Shown: positions 2,891 to 63,061, counted from the stretch's first letter. The stretch is 64,000 bases of DNA from Kiritimatiellia bacterium (GCA_017527155.1 JAFXQI010000042.1:67600-131599); one strand, 5' to 3'. A program made the numbers and translations. Notes: a model not told the origin generated them from the letters alone.

Positions 2891-3110
2891 CTTGCGTTGG
2901 GTGTCATTGTGCGGAAACGGGGCGGGACTGCAAGTGGGAAATGGGGGGAAGGAGCAGGAAAATCCATGGGAGGAGGATGGGGGTGGAAACAGGGGGATTT
3001 CAAGGAGTTTTCCTTGATATCGCAAGTGGTTGGAACGGGGCGGGGGAGAGGCGGGGGAGCGGAGGAGAAAGGCGTTGCGCGGAGGGGGGGAGGGGGATAG
3101 AGTGGAGGGC

Positions 3111-3602
3111 ATGAATGGCATGGATACGAACGTGGAAAGCGATGGGTTCTTTCCGGCAGGACGGACGGAGAGGATCGTGAGCCGGTCGGCGGAGGAGACG
3201 CGGGCGGTGGCGGCGCGGTTGGCGTCGGAATGCCCGGACGGGGCGCTGGTGTGCCTGCACGGGGACCTGGGTGCCGGCAAGACGTGCTTCGTGCAGGGGC
3301 TGGCGCGGGCGCTGGGCATCCGGCGTCCGGTGGGGAGCCCGACCTTCACGCTCGTCAACGAGTACCGGGGAACGCGGGGGCTGGCGCACATCGATCTGTA
3401 CCGGATCCGGGGGGCGGCGGACGCGTTCAGCCTGGGCTTGGAGGACTATCTCCAGCATTACCCGGGAATCGTCGCGATCGAGTGGGCGGAGAGGGCGCTG
3501 GATTTCCTGCCGGAAGATGCCTGGCACGTGCGATTGACGCCGGGCAAGGCGGAAGGGGAGCGGGTGGTGGAAATCGCGCGGCCGGGGCGGTCAAGGGGAT
3601 AG
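3111..3602 (+). CDS. tsaE: tRNA threonylcarbamoyladenosine biosynthesis ATPase TsaE
   Basis: MNGMD...LHGDLGAGKTCFVQGLARALGI...SPTFTLVNEY matches TsaE/YjeE (Walker A GDLGAGKT, SPTF motif). Start at M28 of ORF 3030..3602. Confidence 0.75.
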   Translation: MNGMDTNVESDGFFPAGRTERIVSRSAEETRAVAARLASECPDGALVCLHGDLGAGKTCFVQGLARALGIRRPVGSPTFTLVNEYRGTRGLAHIDLYRIRGAADAFSLGLEDYLQHYPGIVAIEWAERALDFLPEDAWHVRLTPGKAEGERVVEIARPGRSRG

Positions 3603-6013: not shown

Positions 6014-6894
6014 TTCGCGGCCTCGGCGCCGTCGGCGAGGGCGAGGAGGTAGCGGCCGTATTCGTTCTTGGCCATCAGCTCGCCGCGTTCGCGGAGGGTG
6101 TCTTCCTTGATCCAGCCGGCGCGGAAGGCGATTTCCTCCAGGCACGCGATCTTGAGCCCCTGGCGCTCTTCGATGGTCTGCACGAAGTTCGACGCCTGGA
6201 GCAGCGATTCGTGCGTGCCCGTGTCGAGCCACGCGAAACCGCGGCCGAGCAGCTCGACGCGGAGCTTGCCGTCGCGGAGGTAGCTGCGGTTGAGGTCGGT
6301 GATTTCGAGTTCGCCGCGCGGCGAGGGCTTGAGGGCGGCGGCGCGGTCGCAGGCTTCGCCGTCGTAGAAGTAGAGGCCGGGGACGGCGTAGTTGGACTTG
6401 GGGCGCTTGGGTTTTTCTTCGAGGCCGAGGACCTTGCCTTCCGCGTCGAACTCGACGACGCCGTACCGCTCCGGGTCGCGCACGAGGTAGCCGAAGACGA
6501 GCCCGCCTTCCTTGAGCTTGCCCGCGCGCCGCAGGATGCCGGTGAGGCCCATTCCGTGGAAGATGTTGTCGCCCAGCACCAGCGCCGACGGCGACCCGCC
6601 CACGAAGTCGCGCCCGATGATGAACGCCTGCGCCAGCCCTTCGGGACGCGGCTGTTCGGCGTACTCCAGCCGCAGTCCCACGCCGCTGCCGTCGCCGAGC
6701 AGCGTGCGGAAGCGCGGAAGGTCCTCCGGCGTGCTGATGACCAGGATGTCGCGGATGCCGGCCAGCATCAGCACCGACAGCGGATAGTAGATCATCGGCT
6801 TGTCGTACACCGGCAGCAGCTGCTTGCTGATGCCTTGCGTGATGGGATAGAGGCGGGTTCCGCTTCCGCCGGCGAGGACGATGCCTTTCATCAT
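6010..6894 (-). CDS. rfbA: Glucose-1-phosphate thymidylyltransferase
   Basis: [51 protein letters not shown] is the canonical RfbA/RmlA N-terminus; 294 aa. Confidence 0.85.
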
Positions 6895-14854: not shown

Positions 14855-14970
14855 CCTCCGCCCGTTGTTTCCCAGTGCGGACGCGCAGAAGCGCGTCCCT
14901 CCCCGTGGAGAGCGCACCGGGAGGGTCGCGCTTCCGCGCGACCATGTGGTAGGGAAGCGTTCGGGAAGCT
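14855..14970 (-). repeat. GC-rich multi-hairpin interspersed element, copy A (inverted orientation)
   Basis: The reverse complement matches copies at 37515-37620, 40537-40640 and 62652-62848: ttctg(c/t)(a/g)gcttccc...ccaca(a/t)ggtcgcgcggaagcgcgaccctcccgg..ccacggggagggacgcgcttctgcgcgtccgc. It lies between the convergent ettA and folK. Confidence 0.6.
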
Positions 14971-15062
14971 GCAGAAAAACGTAAACCGATCCAACGCGCT
15001 CGGGGCGCAAATCCTGCTCGTGTGTCGGGCGATCTCTCCGGGCGAGCCGTTTTGCCCCCGCT

Positions 15063-17385: not shown

Positions 17386-18255
17386 CTACAGTCCGGGAGG
17401 CAATCCCGGCCCGGGCGGCAGGAACCCCGTCAGCACCTCTGTCCTCAATGCCTCCAGCTTCGGCGGCAGGTCGCGCGCCTGCAGGAAATCCACCAGCTCG
17501 CGGCGGGCGTTTTCCAGCATTACTTCGTCGGGCGGCTTCCCTCCGGCGCCCCCCGGACGCGGCAGGCGCCGCAGGCCCAGCGCGTCGTTCACGTGCGATT
17601 GCAGGCGGGTGAAATTCCAGTGCGCCCGCATCAGGCGCGAGAGGCGGCGTTTCGCCGCCGCGTATTGCGCCTGCAACACCGGGGGAACCGCTGCGGAAGC
17701 CTCCTCGCCGGGCAGCAACCATTCCAGCGGAAGCCGTTCGTCCAGGGCCAGAAGGGCGCGGAGGCGGACGGCGAGGCGCATGTAGCGCATGAGGGTCGAG
17801 TAGTTCATCCCGATGCGGTTGTCGGCCAGCCAGCCCCGGACGCCGCGGCCACGGCCCCGGATGCGTTTTGCGCCCGAAGGAGAGATATCGTAGAGGTTGC
17901 TGCGGTCGAGCGTCGGCGCCAGGTCCGCCAGGCGCGACCCGATCCGCAGGCGCACCGCGAGCGTGCGGGGCCGTACCGCCGCGTCGTCGGCGAACTCCTC
18001 CGGCGTCGGCGTCCCGCGCAGCGACGGCGAGGGCGGCCGCGGCACACGGAGACGGGTCCGGCGGCGCAGCTCGGAGAGGATGGCCTGTCCGCTGTCGGCC
18101 AGCCAGCTGCCGAGGGCGGCCGCCGAGAGCGCGGCGATCCCCGCGACGGCGACGGGCAGGACCACGGGCAGGGCAAGAGGCAGGGCGTAGGCGCGGGCGA
18201 CGTCGCCGGCAATCCCGGCGGCCTCGCGGAGGGTGTATTTGACCGTGTTGTTCAT
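17386..18255 (-). CDS. Hypothetical membrane-anchored protein, paralog family copy 2
   Basis: Start [23 protein letters not shown] (M61 of ORF 17386..18435). About 70 % identity to copies 1 and 3. The stop lies 105 nt upstream of dapA. Confidence 0.55.
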   Translation of the reverse strand: MNNTVKYTLREAAGIAGDVARAYALPLALPVVLPVAVAGIAALSAAALGSWLADSGQAILSELRRRTRLRVPRPPSPSLRGTPTPEEFADDAAVRPRTLAVRLRIGSRLADLAPTLDRSNLYDISPSGAKRIRGRGRGVRGWLADNRIGMNYSTLMRYMRLAVRLRALLALDERLPLEWLLPGEEASAAVPPVLQAQYAAAKRRLSRLMRAHWNFTRLQSHVNDALGLRRLPRPGGAGGKPPDEVMLENARRELVDFLQARDLPPKLEALRTEVLTGFLPPGPGLPPGL

Positions 18256-18318
18256 GGGCGGGAGCATGACGGTTGGGCTTGTGGAAGTCAAGTGTTTTTC
18301 CTGTTTCCAAAAGTGGCA
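18256..18318 (-). promoter_or_regulatory. Conserved upstream element of the paralog family, copy 2
   Basis: Gene orientation reads ...CACTTTTGGAAACAGGAAAAACACTTGACT-TCCACAAGCCCAACCGT-CATGCT-CCCGCCC-ATG. Spacing is the same as in copies 1 and 3. Confidence 0.35.
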
Positions 18319-24607: not shown

Positions 24608-24701
24608 CCTCCGCGGGGAGGGGTGGCGGCGGGGGGTTGTCCGGCACACTTTTTCCTTGCATGGGGCGGGGTTGGAGGGTAGGGTGGGTGGTGTTCGAAG
24701 C

Positions 24702-37264: not shown

Positions 37265-37514
37265 GATCCATCTCCATTTGGTCTTTTCATCCACTCAACC
37301 AAATCCCCGCCCCGATGGAAACCTTTTTCCGCGCCGGAAGGGGAGGGGGGGCAGGACAAGACCATGGCGTTGGATCGGGCGGCCGTCCTCGGATGGGTTT
37401 CCCGGACGGCCTACCGGAGCGGGGCCGTCACGGAGGTCGCTGCGCCGCATCCCGTGCCGTGCCGATCCCGACTCCGTCGTCCGGTGGAGCGAGCTCGCCT
37501 GGAGCGGGTAAAGT

Positions 37515-37620
37515 TATTCTGTGGCTTCCCAGACGTTTCCCAACCACAAGGTCGCGCGGAAGCGCGACCCTCCCGGGGTGCGCTCTCCACGGGGAGGGAC
37601 GCGCTTCTGCGCGTCCGCCC
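37515..37620 (+). repeat. GC-rich multi-hairpin interspersed element, copy B
   Basis: ttctgtggcttcccagacgtttcccaaccacaaggtcgcgcggaagcgcgaccctcccggggtgcgctctccacggggagggacgcgcttctgcgcgtccgc. Hairpins are ggtcgcgc-GGAA-gcgcgacc, ccctccc...gggaggg and ggacgcgc-TTCT-gcgcgtcc. Confidence 0.6.
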
Positions 37621-37873
37621 CCCCCATGATGGCCAGCCCCTTAGGTTGGCCCATCCAACCCCTTTTCCCACCGGTGCAATCCATTCGCGATATCAAGGAA
37701 AACATTCGGATTCTGCCCGCATTTTCCCCATCCCTCACCCATGAACCATTTTCCCGGGAGGCGGTCCGATCCGTTTTGTGCGCGGTCTTCCCTCCGGCCC
37801 CTTTGCACGAAGTGGAGATACGCCCGAGCGGGGGCCGTTGCGGGGGGGGCGGGAGTTTGGTAGGGTGGGGGGC

Positions 37874-38905
37874 ATGGAAAAGAAGAATTCGTACACGATC
37901 GCGCTCACGCCAGCGCAGACGGAGGCCGCCGCGGACATCCTCCGGAACGGGAACTACCGGTTGCGGAACGTGCAGTACGCCGTCGCCGCCGCGGAGGGGC
38001 CGGACTGCCAGATCGCCGTCTACAAGAGCGGCAAGTGCCTGGTGCAGGGGAAGGGGGCGTACGACTGGATCACGTTTGTGCTCGAGCCCGAGGTGCTCGG
38101 CGAGGCCCGCCTCGGCTACGAGGACCAGCTCGACCCCAAGGCCCTCGATCCCCACATGGGCGTCGACGAAAGCGGCAAGGGGGATTTCTTCGGCCCGCTC
38201 GTCGTCGCGGCCGCCTACGTCGACGCCGCCATCGTCAAGGACCTGCGCGCGATGGACGTCCGCGACAGCAAGGCCATCACCACCGACCGCGCGGCGCGCG
38301 AGCTCGCCCGGAAAATCCGCGAGCGGCTCGGCCCGGACCGGTATTCGCTGGTGCGGCTCGGCCCGGCGGCCTACAACCGGATGTACGCCTCGATGGGCAG
38401 CGTCAACCGCATCCTCGCCTGGGGGCACGCGAAGTGCATCGAGACGCTGCTGGAGAAGGTCCCGGATTGCCCGCGCGCCATCAGCGACCAGTTCGGGCCG
38501 GAGTACCAGATCAAGCGGGCGCTCCAGGAGCGCGGGCGCAAGATCGTGCTCGAGCAGCATCCGCGCGCGGAGGCGGACACGGCGGTCGCCGCGGCGTCGA
38601 TCCTCGCGCGGGAGGGGTTTTTGGACATGATGGAGCGGCTCGGGAAGACGGTCGGGCGCACGTTGCCGAAGGGGGCGTCGGCGCAGGTGAAGGCGGCGGC
38701 GCGGGAGCTCGCGGCGGCGCACGGCGGGAAGGTGTTCCTGGAGGTGGCGAAGTGCCACTTCAAGACGACGGACGACGTGCTCGGCGAGCTCGGCAAGACG
38801 CGCGAAGCGGAGGGGCTGCCGCCGGCGCCGGTGCACAAGCCGTTCGTGCGGTACAAGAAGGCGGAGGCGAAGCCGGAGCCGCCGCCGATGGATTCGCTGT
38901 TCTGA
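37874..38905 (+). CDS. rnhC: Ribonuclease HIII
   Basis: Start MEKKNSYTIALTPAQTEAAADIL (M33 of ORF 37778..38905), an RNase HIII N-terminal domain. The catalytic motif is DESGKGDFFGPLVVAAAY. Confidence 0.75.
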   Translation: MEKKNSYTIALTPAQTEAAADILRNGNYRLRNVQYAVAAAEGPDCQIAVYKSGKCLVQGKGAYDWITFVLEPEVLGEARLGYEDQLDPKALDPHMGVDESGKGDFFGPLVVAAAYVDAAIVKDLRAMDVRDSKAITTDRAARELARKIRERLGPDRYSLVRLGPAAYNRMYASMGSVNRILAWGHAKCIETLLEKVPDCPRAISDQFGPEYQIKRALQERGRKIVLEQHPRAEADTAVAAASILAREGFLDMMERLGKTVGRTLPKGASAQVKAAARELAAAHGGKVFLEVAKCHFKTTDDVLGELGKTREAEGLPPAPVHKPFVRYKKAEAKPEPPPMDSLF

Positions 38906-40536: not shown

Positions 40537-40640
40537 CATTCTGTGGCTTCCCAGGCGTTTCCCAACCACAAGGTCGCGCGGAAGCGCGACCCTCCCGCTG
40601 TGCTCGCCACGGGGAGGGACGCGCTTCTGCGCGTCCGCGA
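40537..40640 (+). repeat. GC-rich multi-hairpin interspersed element, copy C
   Basis: ttctgtggcttcccaggcgtttcccaaccacaaggtcgcgcggaagcgcgaccctcccgctgtgctcgccacggggagggacgcgcttctgcgcgtccgc. Confidence 0.6.
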
Positions 40641-41241
40641 AAGAATAAGGTGAAGACACAATGGACTGCGGCCACATTAATTCTGAACCTGCCCCAAGAA
40701 ACACTGTGGTTGTTTCCGAACAGGAAAACTCCGAGGTTCTGGCCGAATGGCATCCCCCTCCATCGCTTGCACGTTCCAGTGCCCGGCGGCGAGGGGACTC
40801 GCCGTCCGTCCCACACAGCTTTGCACGAACGAAAAACTTCTTCACCTGACAACTCCATTGGACCCATTGGACAAAGCCAATGCGGAATGGTTGCCAAGGC
40901 CATGGAGTCCGGACAAAAAAAAGGTCCGTGCCAGGCTTGGGGGGGGGCACCTGGCACGGAGGAAACAGGCAGGGGCCCCGGGGGGGGGGAGGAGGGGCAT
41001 CTTCCTGCCTGCTTGTTGCGTGTTTAGCAACAAGATGTTCAAAATCGTTTGGGCGTTGAAAGAACGGTCTGTTTCTTGCGAAACTGGGGTGCACTATACT
41101 CTTTGCGTCTGGGGTGTCAAGAGGAAAAAGAAAAAATTTTCCGGTAGGTGGAACCGGGCCCGCCGGGAATGAAAAACTCCGCCGTGCGGACGGCGGAGCG
41201 CGAGGGGCCGGTGGAACGGCCCGGAGGGCAGGGGCGGGGGG

Positions 41242-44099: not shown

Positions 44100-44127
44100 T
44101 TGAATCCCGGCGCCGGGCGTGTATAGT
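44100..44127 (+). promoter_or_regulatory. Sigma70-like promoter for tRNA-Arg: TTGAAT-N16-TATAGT
   Basis: The -35 TTGAAT (44100-44105) and -10 TATAGT (44122-44127) are separated by a 16-nt spacer containing the palindrome cccggcgccggg. The tRNA 5' end lies 13 nt downstream. Confidence 0.5.
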
Positions 44128-44315: not shown

Positions 44316-46142
44316 ATGGTGCATATAGAAGCCATGAGCGAGTCGGACATCCATGACAGGCGGGCGAATGCGGTTGCCGGCGGCATCGTGGCGCCCGGTG
44401 TGTGCCTCTGGGGACGATACGAAGTGGTCGATCCCCTGGGGGAGGGCGTCCTGGGCCGCCTGTGGGTCTGCCGCGACCTGCAGGATGACGGCGCCCCCGT
44501 GGTGCTGCGCTGGCTGCCGCCGGACGTACGGAGGTCGCGGGCCCTGCTCGCCGTCCTGCACGAGAACATCCGCAAGCTCGCGGACAGCACGCATCCGAAC
44601 GTGGCGCCGGTGCGCCAGATGGTGTACGCGGGGAACGAAGTCTTCCTCCTGGGCGACTACGCGCCCGGCGTCCCCCTCTCCGAATGGGCCGAGGGGCTGG
44701 AAGCGGAACGCGGCGGGCGGCGGCCGTCCCTCGGCGAACTGCTGCCGGTGCTCGAGCAGGCCGCCGATGCCCTGGACTACGTGCACGCCCGCGATGCGGC
44801 ACACGGGAACCTGACGCCGGCGAACGTGTTCGTGGACGGGGACGGGGCGGTGCGGGTGACGGACTTCGGGCTCGCGTTCGGCCGCCACACGTCCGTACGG
44901 CGCGCGGAGGATGCATCCGGCGGCGGCGCGGAGGCGGAGGCCCTCGCGACCGCGTTCCGGGCCCCGGAACAGCGCGCCGGATCGGGTGCGGACTCGGCCG
45001 CCGACCAGTACTCGCTGGCGGCGCTCGCGTGCTGGACGATGACCGGCCACGCCACCCCCGCGGATGCCGACTGGGCGGCCTGGCCGCCGAATGCGCGGGC
45101 GGCATTCCGCCGGGCACTGCATCCGAAGCCGGGCAAGCGGTTCGTGTCGTGTTTCGACTTCGTGCGGGCGTTGCGCGGGGAACGCGTCGGGGGGCGGCGC
45201 AAGGGATCGGCCGAGGCGCGCCGGAAGGCGCAGCGCTTCGCGGGGATCGCCGCGGGCGTGGTCGCGCTGGTCGCCCTGGGCGCCGGTGCGGTGCTGGGCA
45301 TCGCACGGGCCCTCAACGGCCGCTCCATCGTGGAGGCGGTGACGGCGGAGCGCCCCGAGGCGGCGGAAACGCCCGTGACCTACGCGGCGCGAAACACGCA
45401 GCCGGTCAAGCCGCTGGTGGCGGAGACGCCGCTGCCGACGGAAGGCAAGCCGTGGGTGGCGTCCACGGTGCCGATGCAGTTCGTGTGGGTGTTCGAGATG
45501 CAGATGTGGATCGGGCGGTTCGAGGTCACCAACGAGGAATACCTCGAGATGAACCCGAACCACGAAAGCGGCCGCTTCGTCAGCCCGAAAGGTTCGATGG
45601 CGGTGTCGCTGGAAGGGAAGAACCATCCGGTCGTGGGCGTGAATTTCGCGGAAGCCTACCGCTACGCGCGGTGGCTGACGGAGCGCGAGCGCGAGGCCGG
45701 GAAGCTGCCGGAGGGCTGGGCGTACCGCCTGCCGTCCGCGGCGGAAGCGGAGGCCTACATCCGGGCCGGCACGGACGCGGAGTACCCGTGGGGCGACGAG
45801 CTGCCGCCGGTGCGCGGCAACTACGCGGACGACACGCTCGCGGCCGTCTTTTCCGACATGCCGGTCATCGAAGGCTACCGCGACGGCGCCATCTGCACCG
45901 CCGAGGTCCAGGAAAGCGGCGAGAACGCGTGGGGCCTCTTCGGCGCGAACGGCAACGTGTGGGAAACCGCCTCGCGCGGGCCGGGCGACTCCCATTTCGG
46001 TGGCTGGTTCGGCGGAGCGTGGGACGACTGGCAACCGAGCCGGCTCCGCGCCGATGCCCGCTACGGTTTCCGCGGCGACGCCCACGGCATGGTCAACGGC
46101 TTCCGGCTCGTGCTCGCGCCGGTTGCCGCCCCGCACGAGTGA
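44316..46142 (+). CDS. Ser/Thr protein kinase-like domain (predicted pseudokinase) fused to a formylglycine-generating-enzyme (FGE/SUMF1)-like domain that lacks the catalytic cysteines
   Basis: Start MVHIEAMSE (M29 of ORF 44232..46142; alternative 44334). The kinase fold retains the Gly loop LGEGVLG, DFG (VTDFGLA) and APE (FRAPEQ). The beta3 Lys is replaced by Arg (VVLRWL) and HRD by HGN (HGNLTPAN). The C-terminal FGE fold (GKNHPVVGVNFAEAYRYARWLTERE...GFRLV) has no Cys pair. A TM helix (GIAAGVVALVALGAGAVLGIA) separates the two domains. Confidence 0.6.
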   Translation: MVHIEAMSESDIHDRRANAVAGGIVAPGVCLWGRYEVVDPLGEGVLGRLWVCRDLQDDGAPVVLRWLPPDVRRSRALLAVLHENIRKLADSTHPNVAPVRQMVYAGNEVFLLGDYAPGVPLSEWAEGLEAERGGRRPSLGELLPVLEQAADALDYVHARDAAHGNLTPANVFVDGDGAVRVTDFGLAFGRHTSVRRAEDASGGGAEAEALATAFRAPEQRAGSGADSAADQYSLAALACWTMTGHATPADADWAAWPPNARAAFRRALHPKPGKRFVSCFDFVRALRGERVGGRRKGSAEARRKAQRFAGIAAGVVALVALGAGAVLGIARALNGRSIVEAVTAERPEAAETPVTYAARNTQPVKPLVAETPLPTEGKPWVASTVPMQFVWVFEMQMWIGRFEVTNEEYLEMNPNHESGRFVSPKGSMAVSLEGKNHPVVGVNFAEAYRYARWLTEREREAGKLPEGWAYRLPSAAEAEAYIRAGTDAEYPWGDELPPVRGNYADDTLAAVFSDMPVIEGYRDGAICTAEVQESGENAWGLFGANGNVWETASRGPGDSHFGGWFGGAWDDWQPSRLRADARYGFRGDAHGMVNGFRLVLAPVAAPHE

Positions 46143-47710: not shown

Positions 47711-48571
47711 TCACGGAAGAACCGTACCGCTCGCCCATCCGGCCAGCGCCTCCCGGCGCAGTGCTTCCAGTTTCGGGGGCAGGTCGCCGGCCTGCACGAA
47801 ATCCGCCAGCTCGCGGCGGGTGTTCTCCGCCAAGGTCTCGTCTAGGGGCTTGCCTCCGCCGCGTCCCGGACGCGGCAGGCGCCGCACCCCCAGCGCCCCG
47901 TCCACATGCGATTGCAGGCGGCTGAAGTTCCAGTGTGCCCTGAGCAGGCGCGCGAGGCGGCGTCGGGCCGCCGCGCAATGCGCCTGCAACGCCTCCGGCA
48001 CGGCCGCGGAAGCCTCCGCGCCCGGCAGCAACCATTCCAGCGGCAGCCGTTCGTCCAGACCCAGTAGCGCGCGGAGGCGGACGGCGAGACGCATGTAGCG
48101 CATGAGGGTCGAGTAGTTCATTCCGACGCGGTTGTCCTCCAGCCAGCCCCGGACGCCGCGGCCGCGGCCGCGGATGCGCTTTGCGCCCGTCGGCGAGATG
48201 TCGTAGTGGTTGCCGCGGTCGAGCGTCGGTGCCAGGTCCGCCAAGCGCGACCCGATCCGCAGGCGCACCGTCAGGGTCCGCGGGCGCACCGCCGCATCGG
48301 AGGCGAATTCCTCCGGCGTCGGCGTCCCGCGCAGGGAGGGCGATGGCGGGCGCGGCGCCCTCAGACGCGTCCGGCGGCGCAATTCGGAGAGGATGGCGCG
48401 TCCGGTGGCTCCGGCAATCCAGCTGCCGAGGGCCGCCGCCGAGAGGGCCGCGACACCGGCGAGGGCGGCGGGGACGAGGACGGGGAGGGCCAGGGAGCCG
48501 ACGTAGAACCGGGCGGTGTCGCCGGCGATGCCGGCAGCCTCCCGGAGAGCGTATTTGCAGGTGTTGTTCAT
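47711..48571 (-). CDS. Hypothetical membrane-anchored protein, paralog family copy 3
   Basis: Start [23 protein letters not shown] (M28 of ORF 47711..48652). About 70 % identity to copies 1 and 2. The stop lies 135 nt upstream of deoA. Confidence 0.55.
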   Translation of the reverse strand: MNNTCKYALREAAGIAGDTARFYVGSLALPVLVPAALAGVAALSAAALGSWIAGATGRAILSELRRRTRLRAPRPPSPSLRGTPTPEEFASDAAVRPRTLTVRLRIGSRLADLAPTLDRGNHYDISPTGAKRIRGRGRGVRGWLEDNRVGMNYSTLMRYMRLAVRLRALLGLDERLPLEWLLPGAEASAAVPEALQAHCAAARRRLARLLRAHWNFSRLQSHVDGALGVRRLPRPGRGGGKPLDETLAENTRRELADFVQAGDLPPKLEALRREALAGWASGTVLP

Positions 48572-48632
48572 GGGCGGGAGCTTGGGGAAGGGACGGTGGA
48601 AAGTCAAGGATTTTTCCTGTGTGCAAACGTGA
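48572..48632 (-). promoter_or_regulatory. Conserved upstream element of the paralog family, copy 3
   Basis: Gene orientation reads CACGTTTGCACACAGGAAAAATCCTTGACT-TTCCACCGTCCCTTCCC-CAAGCT-CCCGCCC-ATG. Confidence 0.35.
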
Positions 48633-48742
48633 AAAAGGGGACAGCATGGCAACCTTGAACCGATCCCTTTTCCCGGCCTGCACCCGGTCAGGGCGGACGA
48701 AGGGAAAGAGGAACGGAAGGGGTGGAAGGGGCGGCGGCGGGG

Positions 48743-51135: not shown

Positions 51136-51423
51136 GCTGGATCTCCTGTTCCCCTCATACCACGCCCCGCCTGCCGCCGCAAGCGCGCGACAGCCGGAGC
51201 GGCGGACCGGGGGCGGGGGAGAGGCCGGTGCCAATACTTTTGGAAATAGGAAAATTCTTGATATTTCCCCCCTTTTTCAGTCATCCTCCCCTGCATGAAC
51301 GACAGGGGGGGCTGGGGCTGCCGAGGCGGGGGGGGCGGAGGCTGCGGGGGGGGCGGAAGAAGCGGGCGGAAGGAGCGCGAGATGGGGCTTCCGGCGGGAG
51401 GGAAAGGGTGGTAAGGTGAAGGC

Positions 51424-52779
51424 ATGAGCGACGTCACGTTCCTGGTATTGTTTCTCGGCCTCACGGCGGTGATGGCGGTGTTCCCGCTGGCGATGAAGCG
51501 GGCGGGGGTGCCGTCGGTCATTTCGCTGCTCGTGGTGGGGATGCTGGTCGGGGATACGGGAATCGGGCTGGACCTGATTCCGCGGCTGGCGCGGGCGATC
51601 GATTTCCTGGTGGGCTCCACGGCGGGGGCGGCGGAGACGGCGCGGGCGTTCACGCTGTTCATCGACAAGCTCGGGGCGCTGGGGCTGATGTTCTTGATGG
51701 CACTGGCGGGGATGGAGGCGGACTTCAAGCTGGTGGGAACGTGCCGGAAGCCGGTGATGTGGCTGAGCGTGCTGACGTTCTTCGTTCCGGCGGCGGGCGG
51801 CTTCTTCCTGTACCGGCATTATTTCCCGGAGGCGGTGGCGGGACAGGTGCTGTACGCGTCGCTGTTCGCGTCGCATTCGGTGGGCATCGTGTTCCCGGTG
51901 ATGCGGGAGCTGGGGCTGACGCGGACGCGGTTCGGGGTGTCGGTGCTGGTGGCGACGGTGGTGACGGACGTGGCGTCGATCCTGCTGCTGGCGGTGGCGG
52001 TGCAGCTGCAAGGGCAGGTGGGGGCGGCGGGCGGCGTGGGGTCGCTGTCGATCCTGGAACGCCACGCGGAGGTGCTGGGCGGGCATTACATGGCGGTGTT
52101 TGCGGCGGCGGCGGCGCTGTACGTGGTGGTGGCGGTGCTGGGGGTGCGGCGGATCGGAAGGGCGGCGGTGCGACGGGTGGGGCCGGGGGAGGACGTGATG
52201 GTGACGCTGATGCTGCTGATCATCTTGTTCGCGGCGCTGGCGGGGGAGTTGGTGGGGATCAATTTCATCGTGGGCTCGTTCATCGCGGGGTTGGGGCTGT
52301 CGCGGGTGGTGCGGCAGCAGGACATGCGGCTGTTCAGGCGGTTCGAGAGCATCGGGTACGGGTTCCTGATTCCGTTCCTGTTCGTGTCGATCGGGATGAA
52401 GACGGACTTCCGGGTGTTCGCGCGTCCGGGGTCGGTGGAGATCATCGTGCTGACGATCGCGGTGCTGGTGGGGACGAAGCTGTTGTCGGGCTACGCGGCG
52501 CTGCGGGCGTGCGGGTTCGGGCGGCGCGCGGGGCTGGCGGCGGGGTTGATGACGGTGCCGCAGCTGTCGGCGACGTTGACGGCGGCCGCCATCGGGAAGG
52601 GGCTCGGGATTCTCGACGAGCGGTTCTTCAATGCGGTGATCGTGCTGTCGATCGTGACGACGCTGCCGGTGCCGTCGATGGTGCGGGCGCTGCTGTTCAA
52701 ACGGGGCGTGCGGCGCGGGAACGCGGGAACGGGGGATTTCGCGATCCCGGACGTGGTGCAGGACGAGGATTTGTTGTGA
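51424..52779 (+). CDS. Cation:proton antiporter (CPA2-type Na+/H+ exchanger family)
   Basis: A 451-aa polytopic membrane protein with CPA fold repeats (LGLMFLMALAGMEADF, GSFIAGLGLS). Confidence 0.75.
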   Translation: MSDVTFLVLFLGLTAVMAVFPLAMKRAGVPSVISLLVVGMLVGDTGIGLDLIPRLARAIDFLVGSTAGAAETARAFTLFIDKLGALGLMFLMALAGMEADFKLVGTCRKPVMWLSVLTFFVPAAGGFFLYRHYFPEAVAGQVLYASLFASHSVGIVFPVMRELGLTRTRFGVSVLVATVVTDVASILLLAVAVQLQGQVGAAGGVGSLSILERHAEVLGGHYMAVFAAAAALYVVVAVLGVRRIGRAAVRRVGPGEDVMVTLMLLIILFAALAGELVGINFIVGSFIAGLGLSRVVRQQDMRLFRRFESIGYGFLIPFLFVSIGMKTDFRVFARPGSVEIIVLTIAVLVGTKLLSGYAALRACGFGRRAGLAAGLMTVPQLSATLTAAAIGKGLGILDERFFNAVIVLSIVTTLPVPSMVRALLFKRGVRRGNAGTGDFAIPDVVQDEDLL

Positions 52780-54233: not shown

Positions 54234-55525
54234 TGGGCGGATTTTTCGAGGGCCTGGGCGAGGTCGGCGAGGATGTCGTCGATGTGTTCGATGCCGACGG
54301 ACAGGCGGATGAGGTCGGCGGGGATGCCGGCGGCGGCGAGCTGTTCGTCGGTGAGTTGCCGGTGGGTGGTGGAGGCGGGGTGCAGGAGGCAGGTGCGGGC
54401 GTCGGCGACGTGGGTGAGGATGGCGCCCAGTCGCATGGAATCCATGAGCTTGGTGGCGGCGGCGCGGCCGCCCTTGACGCCGAAGGAGACGACGCCGCAG
54501 GTTCCGCGCGGCATGTATTTCTGCGCGAGGGCGTGGTAGGGGCTGGAGGGGAGGCCGGGGTGGTTGACCCACGCGACGCGGGGGTGGTTCTCCAGGAATT
54601 CGGCGACGGCCAGGGCGTTGCGGACGTGGCGTTCCATGCGCAGGGGCAGGGTTTCGAGGCCGAGGTTGAGGACGTAGGCGGCGAGGGGCGTCTGGGCGGT
54701 GCCGAGGTCGCGCATGAGCTGGGCGCGGGCCTTGACGATGTAGGCGGAGGGGCCGAAGGCGTCGGTGTAGACGAGGCCGTGGTAGGAGGGGTCGGGTTCG
54801 GTCAGGCCGGGGTATTTGCCGGAGGCTTTCCAGTCGAAGCGGCCGGAATCGACGATGACGCCGCCGGTGGTCTGGGCGTGGCCGTCCATGTACTTGGTAG
54901 TGGAATGCACGACGATGTCGGCGCCGTGCTCGAAGGGGCGGCAGAGGGCCGGGGTCGGGAAGGTGTTGTCGATGACGAGCGGCACGCCGTGGGCGTGGGC
55001 GACGGTGGAGAGTTTGGCGAAGTCGGCGACTTCGAGGGACGGGTTCGTCACGGATTCGGCGAAGAGGGCGCGGGTGTTGGGGCGGAAGGCGGCCGCGATT
55101 TCGTCGGCGGAGGCGGAGGGCGGGACGAAGGTGGTCTCGATGCCCATGCGCTTCATGGTCACGGCGAAGAGGTTGAAGGTGCCGCCGTAGATGGCGGAGG
55201 AGGCGACGAGGTGGTCGCCGGCGCCGAGGAGGTTGAAGACGGCCAGGAAGGACGCGGCCTGGCCGGAGGAGGTGAGCATGGCGCCGATGCCGCCTTCGAG
55301 GGCCGCGATCTTCTTTTCGACGTAGTCGAGGGTGGGGTTGCCGAGGCGGGTGTAGAAGAAGCCGGGCTCGGCCAGGTCGAAGAGGCGCGCCATCTGCTCG
55401 GAGGAGTCGTAGTGGAAGGTGGTGGACTGGTAGATGGGCATGACGTGGGGTTCGCCGTTGCCCGGGCGCCAGCCGGCTTGCAGGCAGAGGGTTTCGATGT
55501 GGTCGGTGGGGGGGAGTTGGCTCAT
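54230..55525 (-). CDS. metY: O-acetylhomoserine aminocarboxypropyltransferase / sulfhydrylase
   Basis: 431 aa; it belongs to the PLP-dependent Cys/Met metabolism family, with STTKYMDGH (PLP-Lys) and the N-terminal ETLCLQAGW. Confidence 0.85.
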   Translation of the reverse strand: MSQLPPTDHIETLCLQAGWRPGNGEPHVMPIYQSTTFHYDSSEQMARLFDLAEPGFFYTRLGNPTLDYVEKKIAALEGGIGAMLTSSGQAASFLAVFNLLGAGDHLVASSAIYGGTFNLFAVTMKRMGIETTFVPPSASADEIAAAFRPNTRALFAESVTNPSLEVADFAKLSTVAHAHGVPLVIDNTFPTPALCRPFEHGADIVVHSTTKYMDGHAQTTGGVIVDSGRFDWKASGKYPGLTEPDPSYHGLVYTDAFGPSAYIVKARAQLMRDLGTAQTPLAAYVLNLGLETLPLRMERHVRNALAVAEFLENHPRVAWVNHPGLPSSPYHALAQKYMPRGTCGVVSFGVKGGRAAATKLMDSMRLGAILTHVADARTCLLHPASTTHRQLTDEQLAAAGIPADLIRLSVGIEHIDDILADLAQALEKSAQ

Positions 55526-55685
55526 GGTCGGAAGGTCCTTTCGGGGTTCGGGTGGGTGTTGTAGCGCGCGGGGGGGCGGATGGGAAGCGAAAACAGGCGG
55601 CCGGCCGACGGCCGGCCGTCAGGAGGGGGAGGGCGCCCCGGCGGGGCGGGGCGGAGCAAAACTCATAGGGAGGAGGGGGGAGGGG

Positions 55686-58600
55686 CTAGGGGGTGGGGCA
55701 GGTGGCGCGGAGGTGGTAGAAGGTGGCGGGGGTGGAATTGGTGTCGAAGTACATGGAGACGGGGGGGGTGTTGGTGATTGCGAACTGGGAGGTGGATGCG
55801 GGCAGGAGAAGGTTGGTGGTGAAGGAGAGCTGGTAGGTGACGCCGGTGGCGGAGGGCCAGGAGAGGAGGGTGCCGGTGGAGTCGGCTTCGGCGTCGAGAC
55901 GGAAGAAGGACGCGCCGTCGTTGGGGTCGGTGCCGAGGTGGTATTCTTCGAGGTTGGTGAAGCCGTCGGCGTCGGGGTCGAGGTTGGGGTTGCAGGCGGT
56001 GGCGCCGCCGAAGTGGGCGATGGCCCACCAGTCGGGGATGCCGTCGGAGTCGGTGTCGAGGCGGCGGATGGCGTTGGTGAAGGTGACGGAGGCGGTGCCG
56101 AGGGTGTTGGAGGCGATGAAGGTGAAGACGTTGGTGGCGGGATAGCTGGAGTTGATTTCGAGATAGCCGGTGCCGACGTCGAAGGAGTAGGTGTATTCGT
56201 CGGCGACGGTGTGCGCGGCGTCGAGGGTGATCAGGGGGTATTCGCCGGAGACGTATTGGTAGAGGTTCAGGATGGGCGCGGCGTCGAGGTCGACGAGAAG
56301 GTCGCCGAGGGGCTGCCAGGCGGGGGCGTTGCCGGCGGTGACGGTGACGTCCTGTTCGATGCTTCCGGCGGCGTTTTCGGCGCGGAAGGTGAAGGTGTAG
56401 GCCCCGGCGGCGGGGGCTTCGAAGATGAAGATGTCTTCGGCGATGGCATAGGCGGAGTCGTCGATTTCGTCGCCGGTGCGGGAGTCGAAGGTCCCGACGA
56501 GGGTGACGGCGGGGGACGGAAAGCCGGTGACCTGGCTCTTGAGGTCGATGGTGATTTCGCCGCCGACGCCGGTGGTGTAGGCGGTTTCGCCGGTCCAGGC
56601 GGGGGCGGTCTGGTTGGCGTCGAAGAAGTCGAGGATCTTCTTCATGAGGGTGTTGCGGCGGGTGGCGTCGGTGATGGTCTCGAAGGGGAAGCCGGCGACG
56701 ACGGTGCGGCAGACGGAGTTGGAGCAGGCGATGATGGCGCCGTTGGTGCCGGAGGTGCCGCCGTAGGTGGCGGCGACGAAGGCTTCGCCGACGGGGGCGA
56801 GGGTGTCGGGGTAGTTGGCGGCGTAGATGTCGGGGAGGTTGTTGGTGTAGTTGAAGTCGGCGCGGGTGCCGGAGAGGAAGGTGCCGCTCTTGCCGCTGAC
56901 GATGGCGCTGCCGCCGTCGTCGGCGACGTAGGTGCAGTGGAGGTAGTTGGTCATGAAGGCCTTGTCGGAGTCGGAGCCCTTGGCGGAGAGGTCCCAGCCG
57001 ATTTCGGAGCCGGAGACGAAGAGGGCGCCGCCGTTGTCGAGGAAGGCGGCAAGGCGCTGCTGTTCGTCGTAGGTGAAGGTTTCGTCGGCGGTGGATTCTT
57101 CTCCGAGGCACCAGACGACCTTGGGGTAGCGGGCGAGGTCGGAGGAGGTGACGCGGGAGGCGTCCATGTAGTCGAAGGAGCGTCCGGCGGCGGCGATGGC
57201 GTTGCCGTGTTCCTTGACGTAGTCGAAGGAGTTGATCATGCGCGGGCGGACGAGGGTGACGTTGCCCTTGAGGTTGTTGGCGAAGTAGCGGGTCGGGGAC
57301 TGGGCGCCGTCGTTGCGCTTGAAGCCGTCGACGACGAGGACGTCGGCGGTGGAGCCGTCGGAGGAGAGCCCGGCGCCGGCGACGGGCGAGGAGAGGGATT
57401 CGCCGCCGAGGTTGGTGGCGCAGACGCGGAAATAATATGGGTTCCCGGCGGGGAGGTCGGTGAATTTGTGGGCGTATTCGTCGGCGGGGGAGGTGATGGC
57501 GACGGGGTTGCCGAAGGCGTAGCCGTTGGTGGAGACGTAGATGACGAAGCCGGTGTGGGGGTCGGACATGCGGTTGGTGCCGTGGGGCATCTGCCAGGAG
57601 ACGGTGACGCAGTTGGGGCCGGAGTTGGTGGCGGCGACGGCGACGGGGGCGTCGGGGGCGCAGATTTCGCGGACGGTGAGGGTGGAGTCGGTGGCGTAGC
57701 GGGTGACGAAGTGGCGCAGGATGCCGCGCAGGGCGGAGCGGGCGAGCCATTCGCGGCCGGTGGGGGACTTCATGATGGCGGCGTCGAGTTCCTTGTCGTG
57801 GAAGGCGACTTCGGCGATGGTGTTGTCCATCTTGGTCCAGATGGAGCCGCCGTAGATTTCGCCGTAGTGGGAGCCGAGGGTGCGCGCGCAGTCCTGCTGC
57901 CAGGCGGTGGCGACGAGGCCGTGGGCGTGGGCGGCGGTCATGTTGCTGACGATGGAGTTGGCGATGCAGCGGGCGAGGTTGGTCTGTCCGGCGAGGTAGG
58001 AGCCGGTGACGCGGGTGTCGTAGAGGCCCATGCAACCGCGCTGGGAGCCGGAGGCGTTGGAGTGGAAGGAGAGGTACAGGCGGCGCCAGCGCGGCCAGTC
58101 GTTGGTGCGGCACATGGCGTAGGCCATGCGGTTGGGGGCGGAGACGTTGTCGTCCTGGTCGTAGCTGGCGGTGGAGTTGTAGATGGAGTCGGGGAGGCCC
58201 TGGGAGTCGAGGACCATGCGCTGGGTCCAGTAGCGGGCGCCTTCGAGTTCGCGCTCGTAGCCGGATTTGCCGGCGGTGCCGCGCGAGATGTCGCCCATGC
58301 CGTTGCCGAAGCGGACGGCGTCGGCGATGACGGTGCCGTCGTCGAAGCCGGGGGCGAAGTTGGAGATGTTGACGCAGCCGTTGGTGCCGGCGTCGAACCA
58401 GTAGTTGCCGAGCCAGACCCATCCGTTGCCGACCTGGCGGTGGTCGACGCGGACGTCGGTGACGCCGCCGGCGTGGTGGACACGGTAGAGCTGCGGGACG
58501 CGGTCGGAGCCGGGACGCGCCCAGACGTAGACGGGGTATTCGCCGGCCGCGGGAAGGGACGGGCGGAAGGAGGCCCAGGCGGTGGTGCCGGTGGCGCAGA

Positions 58601-61600
58601 TGTTGGCCCAGCGGTAGCCGACTTCGCCGGCCTTGCCGTGGTAGTAGTCGGTCTGGGACGTGTTGCCCCAGTTGCCGCCGTAGGTGACGCGCGAGGCGAG
58701 GGAGGCGGCGGTGTCGACGTTGTCGATGACGACTTCGTTGGTCTGGTAGCCGAGCGGGCGCATGGGGACGACGGTGGCGCCGGCCTTCCACGCCTGCAGG
58801 GCGAAGTAGTTGAGCTGGTCGATCGTCCCCATGTCCTCGACCATGCCGTAGGTGATGCCGCGTCCGGCCGCCCAGGCGTTGGTCTGGCCGTTGGCGGTGA
58901 AGCCGTGGCCCGCGGCGACGTAGAGGACGATGCCGGAAAGCGCCCCGTGCGGCTGCTCGGCGGTGGAGGTGCCGAAGGGGGACCAGGAGTCGGCGTCGGG
59001 TTCCTCGGGGGCCGTGGAGGTGCCCTCGATGGTCAGGCGGCGCCACTGGATGGACCCCGCCGTGCCGGAGTTGCTGGCGCAGAAGATGACGCCGTGCTCG
59101 CCGCCGTCGAGCGCGGGGGAGAAGGAGAAGGTGTTGGTGTAGGTCTGCTTCAGGGGCGTGGCGCAGACGCCGACGGGGGAGAAGCTGGCGCCGCCGTTGG
59201 TGGAGGCGTAGAGGGTGGCCTGGCGGGTGTCCGCGGCGGAGGCGGGGCGGAAGAGGGTGGTCACCTGCGTGACGACGCCGGCGAAGGCCGGGGTGGTGGC
59301 CCAGGAATTGGTGGGTTTGTAGAGGTAGACGTAGCCGGTGTCTCCGCTCGTCTCGTCCGTGGGCCGGACGTAGCAATTGCCGAGGTTCCACGCGTGGTTG
59401 TTGACGTTGGTTTCGCCGCTGTAGAGGGCGTCGTCGCACAAGGACCAGCCTTCGGGGACGGTGAAGTCCCATGTGGTCGATACGGGCGTGATTTCGGTGG
59501 AGGGTTCGTCGCCGCCGGTCTCCTCGGTGGTGGTGGCGGTGGTCTCGACCCAGACGGAGCGGGTGTTCTCGGTGAGGGCCTGGACGCGGATCCAATATGG
59601 GGTTTCGGGGGAGAGGCCTTCGATGGTGTCGGAGGGGGAGGTGACGGTCTTGGGATAGCCTTCGGGGCGGTTGGCGTCGCAGTAGCGGCCGGTGGTGCCG
59701 GAGAAGGAGAGTTTGATGTTCTTGAGGCCCGCGCCGCGGAGGGAGCCGGAGGTGGAGTCGGCGTGGCGTTCGGCGTAGGGGGCGACGATCTTCACGGCGA
59801 GGGTTTCGCCGTCGAGATAGGGGAGGTCGTAGGACTGTGCGGACCAGTCTTCGTCGTCGGTGGAGGCGGCGCGGCACTCGCCGAGGAAGTTCCAGGGGCC
59901 TTGGTCGAGGCGGTAGTAGACGCGGAGGACGGAGCAGGTGATGCCGACGGTGGATTTGGCGGCATTCCACGGGCAGTTGGAGAAGGAGAGGTTCGCGCTG
60001 GTCGCCCCGTAGAGCGGGAAATCCCACGATTGGAGAGCCTGTCCGGGATGGCCGGCCAGGTAGTGTCCCGCATATTTGGCCGTGGAGCAGTAGCCGGGGC
60101 CTGCGCCGAGGTTGCTGGAGGTCGTGACGGTGCGGACGGTGCCGGTGTAGCACCAGGACTGGCCGGTGAGGAACTGGTTCGTCCCGAGGGAGGCCGACGG
60201 GCAGGTGGCGGTCCAGTTGGTGTAGGGGCCGCTGGCGACGTCGACCTGGTAGGCGGCGGCGCCAGGGGCGGCGGTCCAGGAGAGGGCGATGTTGGTGGCG
60301 GCGGGCTCGGCGGCGAGGCCGGAGGGTACCATGCCGGGGGTGACCGTCACGATGTCGGACCAGTTCGTGGAGGAGGCGTTGCGGACGCGCAGGCTGACGG
60401 GCGAGGAGAGGCCGGTGAGGTTGGTCGCGCAGGTGTCGGCGAGGGGGGTTCCGGTGGCGGCGACCCAGTTGGTGGTCGTGCCGGTGGCAACGAAGGAGTG
60501 GAGCAGGACCGTCGTGGGCTCCCCGGTCGTCACGTTTTCGAAGCGGAAAACGGTTCCGCCGGGATTGGAGATGGAACAGGCCGTGGCGTAGTCGAGGATG
60601 GCCGAGACGTTGGAGCAGGCGTAGGTGCCGACCGTGGTGAAGCCGGTGCTCCCGGCGGGGGCGGCCAGGACGCGGAGTTTGCGGCCTTCGTAGTTCGACG
60701 CGGCGGCGGCGCGAACGCGGACGGCCAGCTGCGTGACAGTGCCGGAAACGGGCGGCGTCTGGATGTAGGAATTGGAGTACGTCAGGTAAACGTAGCCGGG
60801 GTCCTGGTAGTTGGTGATGCCGGGGCGGAGTTCCAGCTTGCCGCGGAGCCCCCAGGCGCTGCCGGCCACGTTGACGGTGGTGGGCGTGGTCGTGGTGACG
60901 TTGTTCGTCACCCAGCCCTCGGCGGAGGAGAACGAATTGGAGAAGACGAGCGGCACGTCCTCCCACCAGCCGTCCGCGAGCCCTTCGGGCGTGGGGGCGG
61001 ACTGGACGACGTAGCCGGCGGGATCCACGACGGCGGGGGTCCAGGAGAAGAGCGCGGAGGAGGCGCCGATGCCCGTGGCGCGGGCGTCGGGGGCGCTGGC
61101 GCCGGAGCCGCCGCCGGAGCCGCCGCCGGAGTAGGTGTCGAACTTCTCGCCGAGGAGTTCCCACAGCTCCTCCGCTTCCGGCGCGTGGGTCAGGCACCAG
61201 ATGCCGACGCCGCCGAGGCCCTTGGACTTCGCGTAGTCGTACTTGAGGCCGAGCGATTCCGCGTCGTCGTAGAAACACTGGTAGGCGTTGGTGCCGGACT
61301 TGTACGCGTAGTACGGGACGGACCCGTTCGAGTCCCATTGGCGCCCGTGGTTTTCGGCGGCGGCGACCGCGTTGGGGTATGTCACGGCGGCCGAGTAGGA
61401 CGAGCCGCAGGACTTCGAGCCGATGCTGGTGGTGGCGGACTTCCAGCGGCGGCCGTAGTAGGGCACCGCCAGCATGAGGTGGGCGGCGTTGGTCATCTTG
61501 TTGAGATAATAGCGGGTCGAATAGTCCACGCTGCACCAGGAGGATGCCCCCTGCCACTGTGCCGACGAATAGAGCGGCGCGACGGGCCCGGGCGTGGCGG

Positions 61601-62444: not shown

Positions 62445-62651
62445 GCTTTCGATTTTACCCCCACGCGCGCGCGGAGGAAAGCCGAAAAAGCGGGGAGGAA
62501 TGGAGCGGAGGGCATCCCGCTTTGTGCAAGGTGCAAGCCCGGAAGCGGAGAGGGAGGACGGGGGAAAACTCCGATTGGTCCGATGGCCCGGGATGCGGGA
62601 GAAACGCGCGAAGCCGGCGGTTCCAGCGGGGAATGGGGGGCTTCCTCTTTT

Positions 62652-62848
62652 CCTGCAGCTTTCCGGACGTTTTTCCACCACAAGGTCGCGCGGAAGCGCG
62701 ACCCTCCCGGTGCGTTCTCCAGGGGGAGGGACGCGCTTCTGCGCGTCCGCGGGGGAAACCGGACGTTTTTCCACCACAAGGTCGCGCGGAAGCGCGACCC
62801 TCCCGGTGCGTTCTCCACGGGGAGGGACGCGCTTCTGCGCGTCCGCGG
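62652..62848 (+). repeat. GC-rich multi-hairpin interspersed element, two tandem copies (D and E)
   Basis: Two consecutive units of about 98 bp lie immediately upstream of the giant gene's start. Each is ccaccacaaggtcgcgcggaagcgcgaccctcccggtgcgttctcca(g/c)ggggagggacgcgcttctgcgcgtccgc. The 204-aa ORF 62441..63055 (-) with a duplicated peptide is their translation artefact. Confidence 0.6.
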
Positions 62849-63061
62849 TGGAAATGCCCGGAGGGACGATGGATGGAGGCCCCCCTGTTCCTTTGAGCGG
62901 TTCAAGAAACAGTACAGCTCCTGTTTCGCCTTCCAGACTGGTGGGGGCGAGCTCTCCGAGCGAGCCGTTCCTTGCGCCTCTGAGGCTCGCACGGAGTGCT
63001 CGCCCTGCCAGGCCCCTGTCACGGGGCGACCACGGTATTTCTCGACCCGCTCCAAACCGCG

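Follow-up and report, generated by a model that had tools for sequence, protein, structure and literature searches.

The window, the whole stretch of 64,000 nucleotides analysed here, is core chromosome of a Kiritimatiellia bacterium and carries ruvC, scpAB, dapA, gspD, rlmN, aspS, rnhB, tsaE and other genes. Three paralogous genes, here called copies A, B and C, lie in it on the minus strand, each preceded by a common element. Copy A (193-1068, 291 aa) begins with the ATG at 1068-1066, copy B (17386-18255, 289 aa, MNNTVKYTLRE...) with that at 18255-18253, and copy C (47711-48571, 286 aa, MNNTCKYALRE...) with that at 48571-48569. All three stand directly upstream of a same-strand housekeeping gene, across a short gap: purA for copy A (recognised by eye), dapA for copy B, and a pyrimidine-nucleoside phosphorylase gene for copy C. 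As a rule for the family, the idea of an operon leader was discarded, since downstream neighbours of family genes are on the same strand in 25 cases and on the opposite strand in 31.

The promoter region of copy B occupies 18256-18318 (minus strand; positions are counted from the A of the ATG as +1). In gene orientation it consists of an upstream block, CACTTTTGGAAACAGGAAAAACAC (18292-18315), with an A-tract at -44 to -40, followed by a -35 hexamer, TTGACT (18286-18291), a variable spacer of 17 nt (18269-18285), a -10-like hexamer, CATGCT (18263-18268), and a C-rich gap of 7 nt, CCCGCCC (18256-18262), which ends at the ATG. The region of copy A (1069-1131) has the same layout, with the block CACTTTTGCACATAGGAAAAATCC at 1105-1128, TTGACA at 1099-1104, the 17-nt spacer at 1082-1098, CATGCT at 1076-1081 and the gap CCGCGCC at 1069-1075. 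In copy C (48572-48634) the block CACGTTTGCACACAGGAAAAATCC lies at 48608-48631, TTGACT at 48602-48607, the 17-nt spacer at 48585-48601, CAAGCT at 48579-48584 and the gap CCCGCCC at 48572-48578. The original prediction had described three such upstream sites, and each was recovered at its position on the minus strand. Its consensus stands apart from one letter: copy A reads ACATAGG where ACACAGG had been written, which adds one variable position.

Conservation of the element within the window

A degenerate 29-mer for the element, CACKTTTGSAMAYAGGAAAAAYMCTTGAC, matches the window three times, against 0.00 matches expected from 100 shuffles. When the three loci were aligned together with their flanks, homology set in abruptly at CCAC(T/G)TTTG, about 62 nt 5' of the ATG, and ran almost to the C-terminus of the protein, between unrelated outer flanks. 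Could the element simply be similarity that survives from the duplication of the genes? Pairwise comparison of the three copies gives 20-22 identical positions out of 27 for the upstream block and 5-6 out of 6 for each of the two hexamers. The 17-nt spacer between the hexamers retains 5-9 of 17 positions, and the 60 nt beyond the block 16-24 of 60, both about what random sequence gives. Four-fold degenerate codon sites of the three genes are 68-73% identical, where roughly 40% is the random expectation given a GC3 of 89%. Since conservation is confined to the blocks, with spacer and outer flanks close to random, the earlier claim of conservation beyond neutral drift holds, with the scrambled spacer between two conserved blocks serving as an internal control. 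Such a pattern marks a bipartite promoter; it is not a remnant of the duplication.

The element across the gene family

The region 5' of the conserved Met was extracted for 73 paralogs, whose proteins are 38-93% identical. Essentially all of the 73 share the architecture of the window copies. The original prediction had left the occurrence of the motif elsewhere to a wider search; there, the element proved to be enriched, standing 5' of about 70 further paralogs in two related rumen Kiritimatiellae MAGs. The family-wide layout comprises an A-tract at -44 to -40, TTGAC(A/T) or TTGCAT at -36 to -31, about 17 nt of spacer, CAYNCT, 7 C-rich nucleotides and the ATG. The T of TTG lies 35-37 nt 5' of the ATG in 56 of 65 paralogs, the hexamers are separated by 17 nt in 45 of 65 (16 or 18 nt in 9 more), and the gap from the -10 to the ATG measures 7 nt in 39 of 64, 8 nt in 14 and 6 nt in 6. 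A -35 at fixed distance from a weak -10-like hexamer, as first described for the three window copies, all of which have the 17-nt spacer, is therefore also the arrangement of most of the family.

The commonest -35 hexamers are TTGACA (18), TTGCAT (15) and TTGACT (14), and the commonest -10 hexamers CATCCT (18), CACACT, CATTCT and CATCAT (8 each), CATGCT (6) and CATACT (5). In genomes of about 70% GC, A occupies -43, -42 and -41 in 57, 63 and 57 of the 73 paralogs, respectively. From -33 to -1 there is hardly any G, and the spacer is pyrimidine-rich and variable. Compared with TATAAT, the -10 matches at three of six positions; it retains the A of position 2 and the T of position 6, with C in first place in 62 of 64 paralogs. 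This -10 does without the usually important T at -12, which counts against reading the element as a promoter, and a scan with the standard sigma-70 consensus returned 0 sites at the family promoter.

What kind of family lies downstream? The paralog proteins have no match in Pfam, NCBIfam or PHROG, no PDB sequence and no matching fold. A sequence search yielded 102 relatives, all hypothetical, and a profile search at least 429 clusters, likewise all hypothetical, whose only named organisms are Kiritimatiellae MAGs from rumen or gut samples; searched for annotated distant relatives, the profile returned hypothetical Kiritimatiellae proteins only. Viral contigs contained no relatives of the family. 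A scan of one genome per species found 80 loci in only two MAGs, RUG11196 and RGIG6903, or about 40 paralogs per genome, and a metagenome scan with a 25-mer of the window type found one further instance, at a contig end. The family is thus very large and restricted to one lineage, with no known fold or function. Within the window, tblastn with 63 family proteins revealed no fourth paralog. The original count of three paralogs is right for the window genes that carry the element, but falls short of a family of about 40 members per genome, and the window holds two orphan elements besides.

In many cases paralogs resemble others in their own genome (up to 93% identity) more than any in the other genome. 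The window and RUG11196 are about 96-97% identical in their shared flanks. This closeness of paralogs within a genome, the absence of an orientation bias and the breaks of synteny at gene ends described below indicate that the family is still expanding and turning over.

Start codon and probable leaderless transcription

Because an in-frame stop occurs within 90 nt upstream in 26 of the 73 paralogs and 54 of the 73 have no alternative in-frame ATG, the conserved ATG is the start codon; across the family, this Met is also where the protein alignments start. The motif fixes the true start codons of family genes, which gene callers often extend upstream. The interval from the -35 to the ATG contains no purine-rich stretch: it leaves no room for a Shine-Dalgarno site, and G is too rare in it to form one. 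Position -1 is C in 72 of 73 paralogs, and -2 in 62 of 73, so that transcription from the A of the ATG would begin at a C(-1)A(+1) dinucleotide, the context from which bacterial RNA polymerase prefers to start. For copy B, the predicted start of transcription is the A at 18255. The leaderless or near-leaderless transcript that the original prediction had read from the gap of about 7 nt is supported, on comparative evidence, by the geometry, the start codon and the lack of a Shine-Dalgarno site. The element is probably a promoter that yields a leaderless transcript, common to the whole gene family and probably co-regulated.

Comparison with ordinary promoters of the same genomes

We searched 505 kb of DNA in total with the pattern TTG..-N16-18-[CT]A...T-N5-9-ATG, requiring that the ATG open a coding-like ORF of at least 100 aa. 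The 84 matches comprise 64 family genes and 20 unrelated genes; controls in which the final gap was set to 12-16, 20-24 or 30-34 nt gave 4, 6 and 9. The -35/-10/ATG geometry with a canonical TAnnnT thus opens at least 20 unrelated coding-like ORFs, and this ordinary leaderless pattern is enriched about 10-fold over the shifted-gap controls. Leaderless initiation therefore appears to be general in these genomes, which fits the earlier inference for the family.

Ordinary genes of this kind have TTGCGG or TTGCGC-N17-TAGRRT-N6-7-ATG with G-rich spacers, as seen in the window at 3075-3113 and 37836-37876 (both plus strand) and in 18 genes of loci L004-L078. The first of these is the promoter of tsaE, TTGCGC-N17-TAGAGT-N7-ATG with the ATG at 3111 and a G-rich spacer, and the second that of rnhB, with the ATG at 37874. 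Promoters of the window's tRNA genes also have canonical -10 hexamers: tRNA-Leu at 24657-24685 (plus strand) reads TTGCAT-N17-TAGGGT, and tRNA-Arg at 44100-44127 (plus strand) TTGAAT-N16-TATAGT.

Family promoters differ systematically from the non-family ones. Their first -10 base is C in 62 of 64 cases, versus 1 of 20 in non-family promoters (Fisher p = 1.2e-15). Their -10 is CA(T/C)N(C/A)T, compared with TAGGAT, TAGAGT or TATAGT, and their -35 is TTGAC(A/T) or TTGCAT, compared with TTGCGG or TTGCGC. The spacer contains 7% G in the family and 55% elsewhere, the discriminator is 76% C in the family and G-rich elsewhere, and the upstream A-tract is present in the family and lacking in the others. 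The family promoters form a class of their own beside the ordinary leaderless ones that these genomes carry, a distinction that the original prediction had not drawn. For an uncultured PVC lineage this gives a first testable picture of promoter grammar, in which leaderless initiation appears common and at least two classes coexist, a housekeeping TTGCGG-N17-TAGRRT and a family A-tract-TTGACA-N17-CATCCT.

Both classes recall leaderless promoters of other bacteria, of which Zheng et al., cited in PMC5397173, reportedly gave a comparative prediction in 2011. For Actinobacteria and Deinococcus-Thermus, comparative prediction places a -10 of TANNNT about 7 nt before the start codon (PMC5397173). 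As in those promoters, the -10 of the family ends 6-8 nt before the ATG, no Shine-Dalgarno site is present, and +1 would be the A of the ATG; the many ordinary leaderless examples in the same genomes follow that pattern as well. The family departs from it in that the first -10 base is C, not T, and in that a strong -35 and an A-tract accompany the -10, which many leaderless promoters use by itself. The bacterium differs as well: Kiritimatiellae belong to the PVC group, for which our literature search found no leaderless description, and searches for work on Kiritimatiellae promoters, PVC leaderless genes or the paralog family found nothing relevant.

A putative family promoter

We consider it likely that the conserved block is the leaderless promoter of each paralog, with the A-tract as a proximal UP-like element, a protein-binding site distal to it, and a common control dedicated to the family. 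A sigma-70-family RNA polymerase holoenzyme would bind TTGAC(A/T) at -36 to -31 and the non-canonical -10, CA(T/C)N(C/A)T, at -13 to -8, where it is embedded in a C-run. Transcription would start at the A of the ATG, after the invariant C at -1, and the leaderless mRNA would be translated without a Shine-Dalgarno site. The A-tract at -44 to -40, placed where a proximal UP subsite would be contacted by the alpha-CTD, probably boosts the poor -10. The distal 12-15 nt, which are specific to subfamilies (CACTTTTGCACAC here; GCGAGATTAC or CTCGCGATATCA elsewhere), most likely form a sequence-specific protein-binding site. Because the promoter class differs systematically from ordinary leaderless promoters, an alternative sigma factor, or else an activator or repressor, probably exerts a dedicated and common control over the family. 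A shared private promoter would imply coordinated expression, and hence a route to working out the role of the family.

Could the same promoter instead be read by a sigma-32-like (group 3) alternative sigma factor, the family being a stress regulon? We regard this as possible but doubtful. The sigma-32 consensus is CTTGAAA-[N11/16]-CCCCAT (PMC545781), and dnaKp1 reads CCCCCTTGAAGACGTGGTTTACGACCCCATTTAGTAGTCA, with CTTGAA at -35 to -30 (PMC10216364). The family consensus, cCTTGACt ... CCcCCAtccT or CTTGAC(A/T)-N14-CCCCAT(N)(C/A)T, resembles both in the C before TTGA, the 14-nt gap to a CCCCAT-like -10 and the predicted start about 7 nt downstream. C is enriched from -17 to -13 and precedes TTG in 40 of the 73 paralogs, and the strict pattern CTTG[AC]NN-N12-15-CCCATN[ACT]T occurs, in the 505 kb, only at family sites (18) apart from one spurious match. 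A categorical difference from housekeeping promoters is also what a different sigma factor would be expected to produce. Yet the second conserved T falls one position later than in CCCCATnT, the family having CATnCT with T at -8 in 49 of 73, and the C-run is perhaps compositional in a region that is C-rich as a whole. CCCCAT is present in just one window copy, A; the corresponding letters are CGTCAT in copy B and CCCCAA in copy C. Upstream lies an A-tract rather than the TnTCnCC of sigma-32 promoters. The family genes, unlike members of a sigma-32 regulon, are not chaperones or proteases, and the sampled 505 kb contain no rpoH-like or chaperone gene (rpoH, groEL, dnaK, clpB, htpG, lon, grpE and dnaJ were sought). 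RpoH in the strict sense occurs mainly in Proteobacteria.

The upstream block and its inverted partner

To return to the promoter that we favour, the original prediction had suggested that the upstream block is an operator or UP element and that the family is co-regulated, a plausible reading of the sequence. The most conserved upstream feature, in all flavours of the block, is the A-tract centred at -42; the distal part has conserved, flavour-specific G/C positions and, in the flavour of the window, a T-tract at -57 to -54. Work by Estrem, Gourse and colleagues reportedly places the proximal UP subsite consensus, AAAAAARNR, at -46 to -38. The family A-tract near -42 fits this position; like an UP element of the rrnB P1 type, it lies immediately upstream of the -35. 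The distal UP subsite, a T-tract at about -52 to -47 with any A/T tolerated, is not matched by the window T-tract at -57 to -54. Unlike UP elements, then, the block has a T-tract out of register, distal G/C positions specific to subfamilies and, in two subfamilies, an inverted recurrence inside the gene, which a generic UP element does not explain. Two other readings of the block were set aside: a sigma-54 reading of CACTTTTGCA (GG-N10-GC) was rejected by eye, the -24 GG being absent, and an ECF reading (GGAAC-N16-CGTC) failed since the positions after GGAAAA are not conserved.

The distal flavours follow protein subfamilies. Flavour F1, the window type, reads CACTTTTG(C/G)A(A/C)AYAGG, F2 GCGAGATTAC(A/G)G and F3 CT(C/T)GCGATATCAAGG; there are a few minor flavours. 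Common descent alone could explain why the flavour co-varies with the subfamily. In the F2 (GAGATTAC) and F3 (GATATCAAGG/GCGATATCAAGG) subfamilies, an inverted copy of the block occurs inside the same gene, at +741 to +791. It was found in 42 F2 and F3 paralogs, always at the same alignment position, with matches of 14-20 out of 24, where the best of 30 shuffles reached 13-16; read on the sense strand, its peptide is FSVISR or NPL(I/V)SR. Examples among loci L023-L078 are 2816-2843 with 3599-3626 in L031 and 2947-2960 with 3794-3807 in L073. In F2 the inverted copy is part of a local palindrome, CGGAAAAC-N5-7-GTTTTCCG. The F1 copies of the window do not have the insertion that carries the internal copy; they align there against a gap of 30 residues and match at 12-13 of 24 positions, which is background. 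As the upstream and internal copies change together between F2 and F3, they argue for specific recognition of the DNA sequence itself, whether by a regulator or by a recombinase. A DNA-inversion switch was rejected for these subfamilies, every callable ORF being intact and in one orientation.

Might the protein that recognises the block be the family protein itself? The distal block would then be its own site, the inverted copy about 800 bp downstream a partner for looping or recombination, and promoter and gene together a self-propagating cassette. We think this unlikely; if true, each subfamily would police its own promoter, and a new kind of self-specific cassette would have colonised the core chromosome of rumen Kiritimatiellae. 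Conserved upstream regions of multicopy paralog families are known from the Borrelia erp/UHB elements and the Mycoplasma vlp/vsp promoters. The family resembles these in being large and dispersed, with the same promoter/operator block before every copy, an arrangement pointing to common control, but organism, protein and sequence are unrelated, and no phase-variation repeat or invertase is evident here.

Orphan elements and the duplicated unit

Two further elements in the window do not precede a family gene. The first (2965-3034, minus strand) has the F3 flavour (GCGATATCAAGG), with the block CCACTTGCGATATCAAGGAAAACTCC, TTGAAA at 2998-3003, an 18-nt spacer, CATCCT at 2974-2979, a 6-nt gap and an ATG at 2967-2965 that opens an ORF of only 26 codons. 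It lies 77 nt upstream of a gene with a prepilin-type N-methyl motif (2468-2890), which is followed by a type I phosphodiesterase gene (1170-2471). The second (51232-51297, plus strand) has the F1 flavour, as do the three reported copies, with the block CAATACTTTTGGAAATAGGAAAATTC, TTGATA at 51258-51263, an 18-nt spacer, CATCCT at 51282-51287 and the gap CCCCTGC; its ATG (51295-51297) opens a Gly-rich ORF of only 39 codons, and an Na+/H+ exchanger gene (51424-52779) begins 129 nt downstream. Similar orphans exist in the related MAGs. In both window orphans the ATG stands at the canonical distance. Elements without a family gene count against the reading of the block as the promoter of each paralog: the element either can serve other genes or can persist as a relic. 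Perhaps paralogs were deleted at these orphan sites and left behind promoters that now drive the genes downstream. Leaderless mRNAs, UP-like tracts and promoters all belong to kinds already known. What is new is the scale, a promoter class set apart by its C-12 -10 in a C-run, its A-tract and its subfamily-specific distal block, the orphans, and the co-varying inverted partner.

Do the orphans instead betray a block that is conserved for propagation, as the recombination or insertion site that terminates a gene cassette able to duplicate itself or to move? Block and gene together make up precisely the duplicated unit, which is dispersed in about 40 copies per genome, many of them at contig ends, and the even orientation relative to neighbours and the closeness of paralogs within a genome would fit such a cassette. 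So would the inverted block copy inside the gene in the two other subfamilies, and the breaks of synteny with RUG11196 right at the ends of family genes. Breaks at such gene ends, or next to them, occur at 17416 and 10209 of the window, at 3843 of L001 and at 3973 of L027; L027 carries a paralog where the window has scpA, which could be a rearrangement, an insertion polymorphism or the product of MAG contigs that are chimeric at repeats. Nevertheless, we judge this explanation quite improbable. Recombination has no use for the geometry of -35, spacing, -10 and ATG, which is conserved better than anything else. Around the three window copies a search found no terminal inverted repeats, and the inverted copies of the other subfamilies lie inside the coding sequence, not at its end. 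The family protein resembles no transposase or recombinase, by sequence or by fold, and has no viral relatives; no identical copies were seen; all F2 and F3 genes with a callable ORF are intact and in a single orientation, with no inversion; and the window is ordinary core chromosome.

That the block is transcribed or translated, as an RNA element of a 5' UTR or as an N-terminal extension from the ATG in CATGCT or from TTG, is highly improbable: although this ATG is in frame in copies A and B and ORFs are open upstream to a TTG or GTG, copy C has AAG at the site, CATG occurs in only about 8 of the 73 paralogs, the upstream in-frame stops of 26 paralogs intervene, the conservation shows two blocks around a scrambled spacer with no 3-nt periodicity, and an RNA element was rejected because Rfam gave no match and the region folds no better than its shuffles (z of -0.5, +0.9 and +0.4).

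Other features of the window

A repeat of about 95 nt, GCGGACGCGCAGAAGCGCGTCCCTCCCCGTGGAGAGCGCACCGGGAGGGTCGCGCTTCCGCGCGACCTTGTGGT, with two GC-rich hairpins and a REP- or MITE-like character, occurs in five copies in the window: 14877-14978 (plus strand), 37502-37618, 40539-40687 and, in tandem, 62649-62758 and 62759-62854 (all minus strand). It is also present in L050 at 6306-6469, and has no Rfam match at the gathering threshold. The two tandem copies lie inside the interval 55434-63578, where very long ORFs overlap (2543 aa on the plus strand and 2630 aa on the minus strand) and GC3-based calling gives only short coding-like pieces. At 44316-46142 (plus strand), right after the tRNA-Arg gene, a protein is encoded in which a Ser/Thr kinase domain is joined to an FGE-sulfatase (sulfatase-modifying-factor-like) domain.
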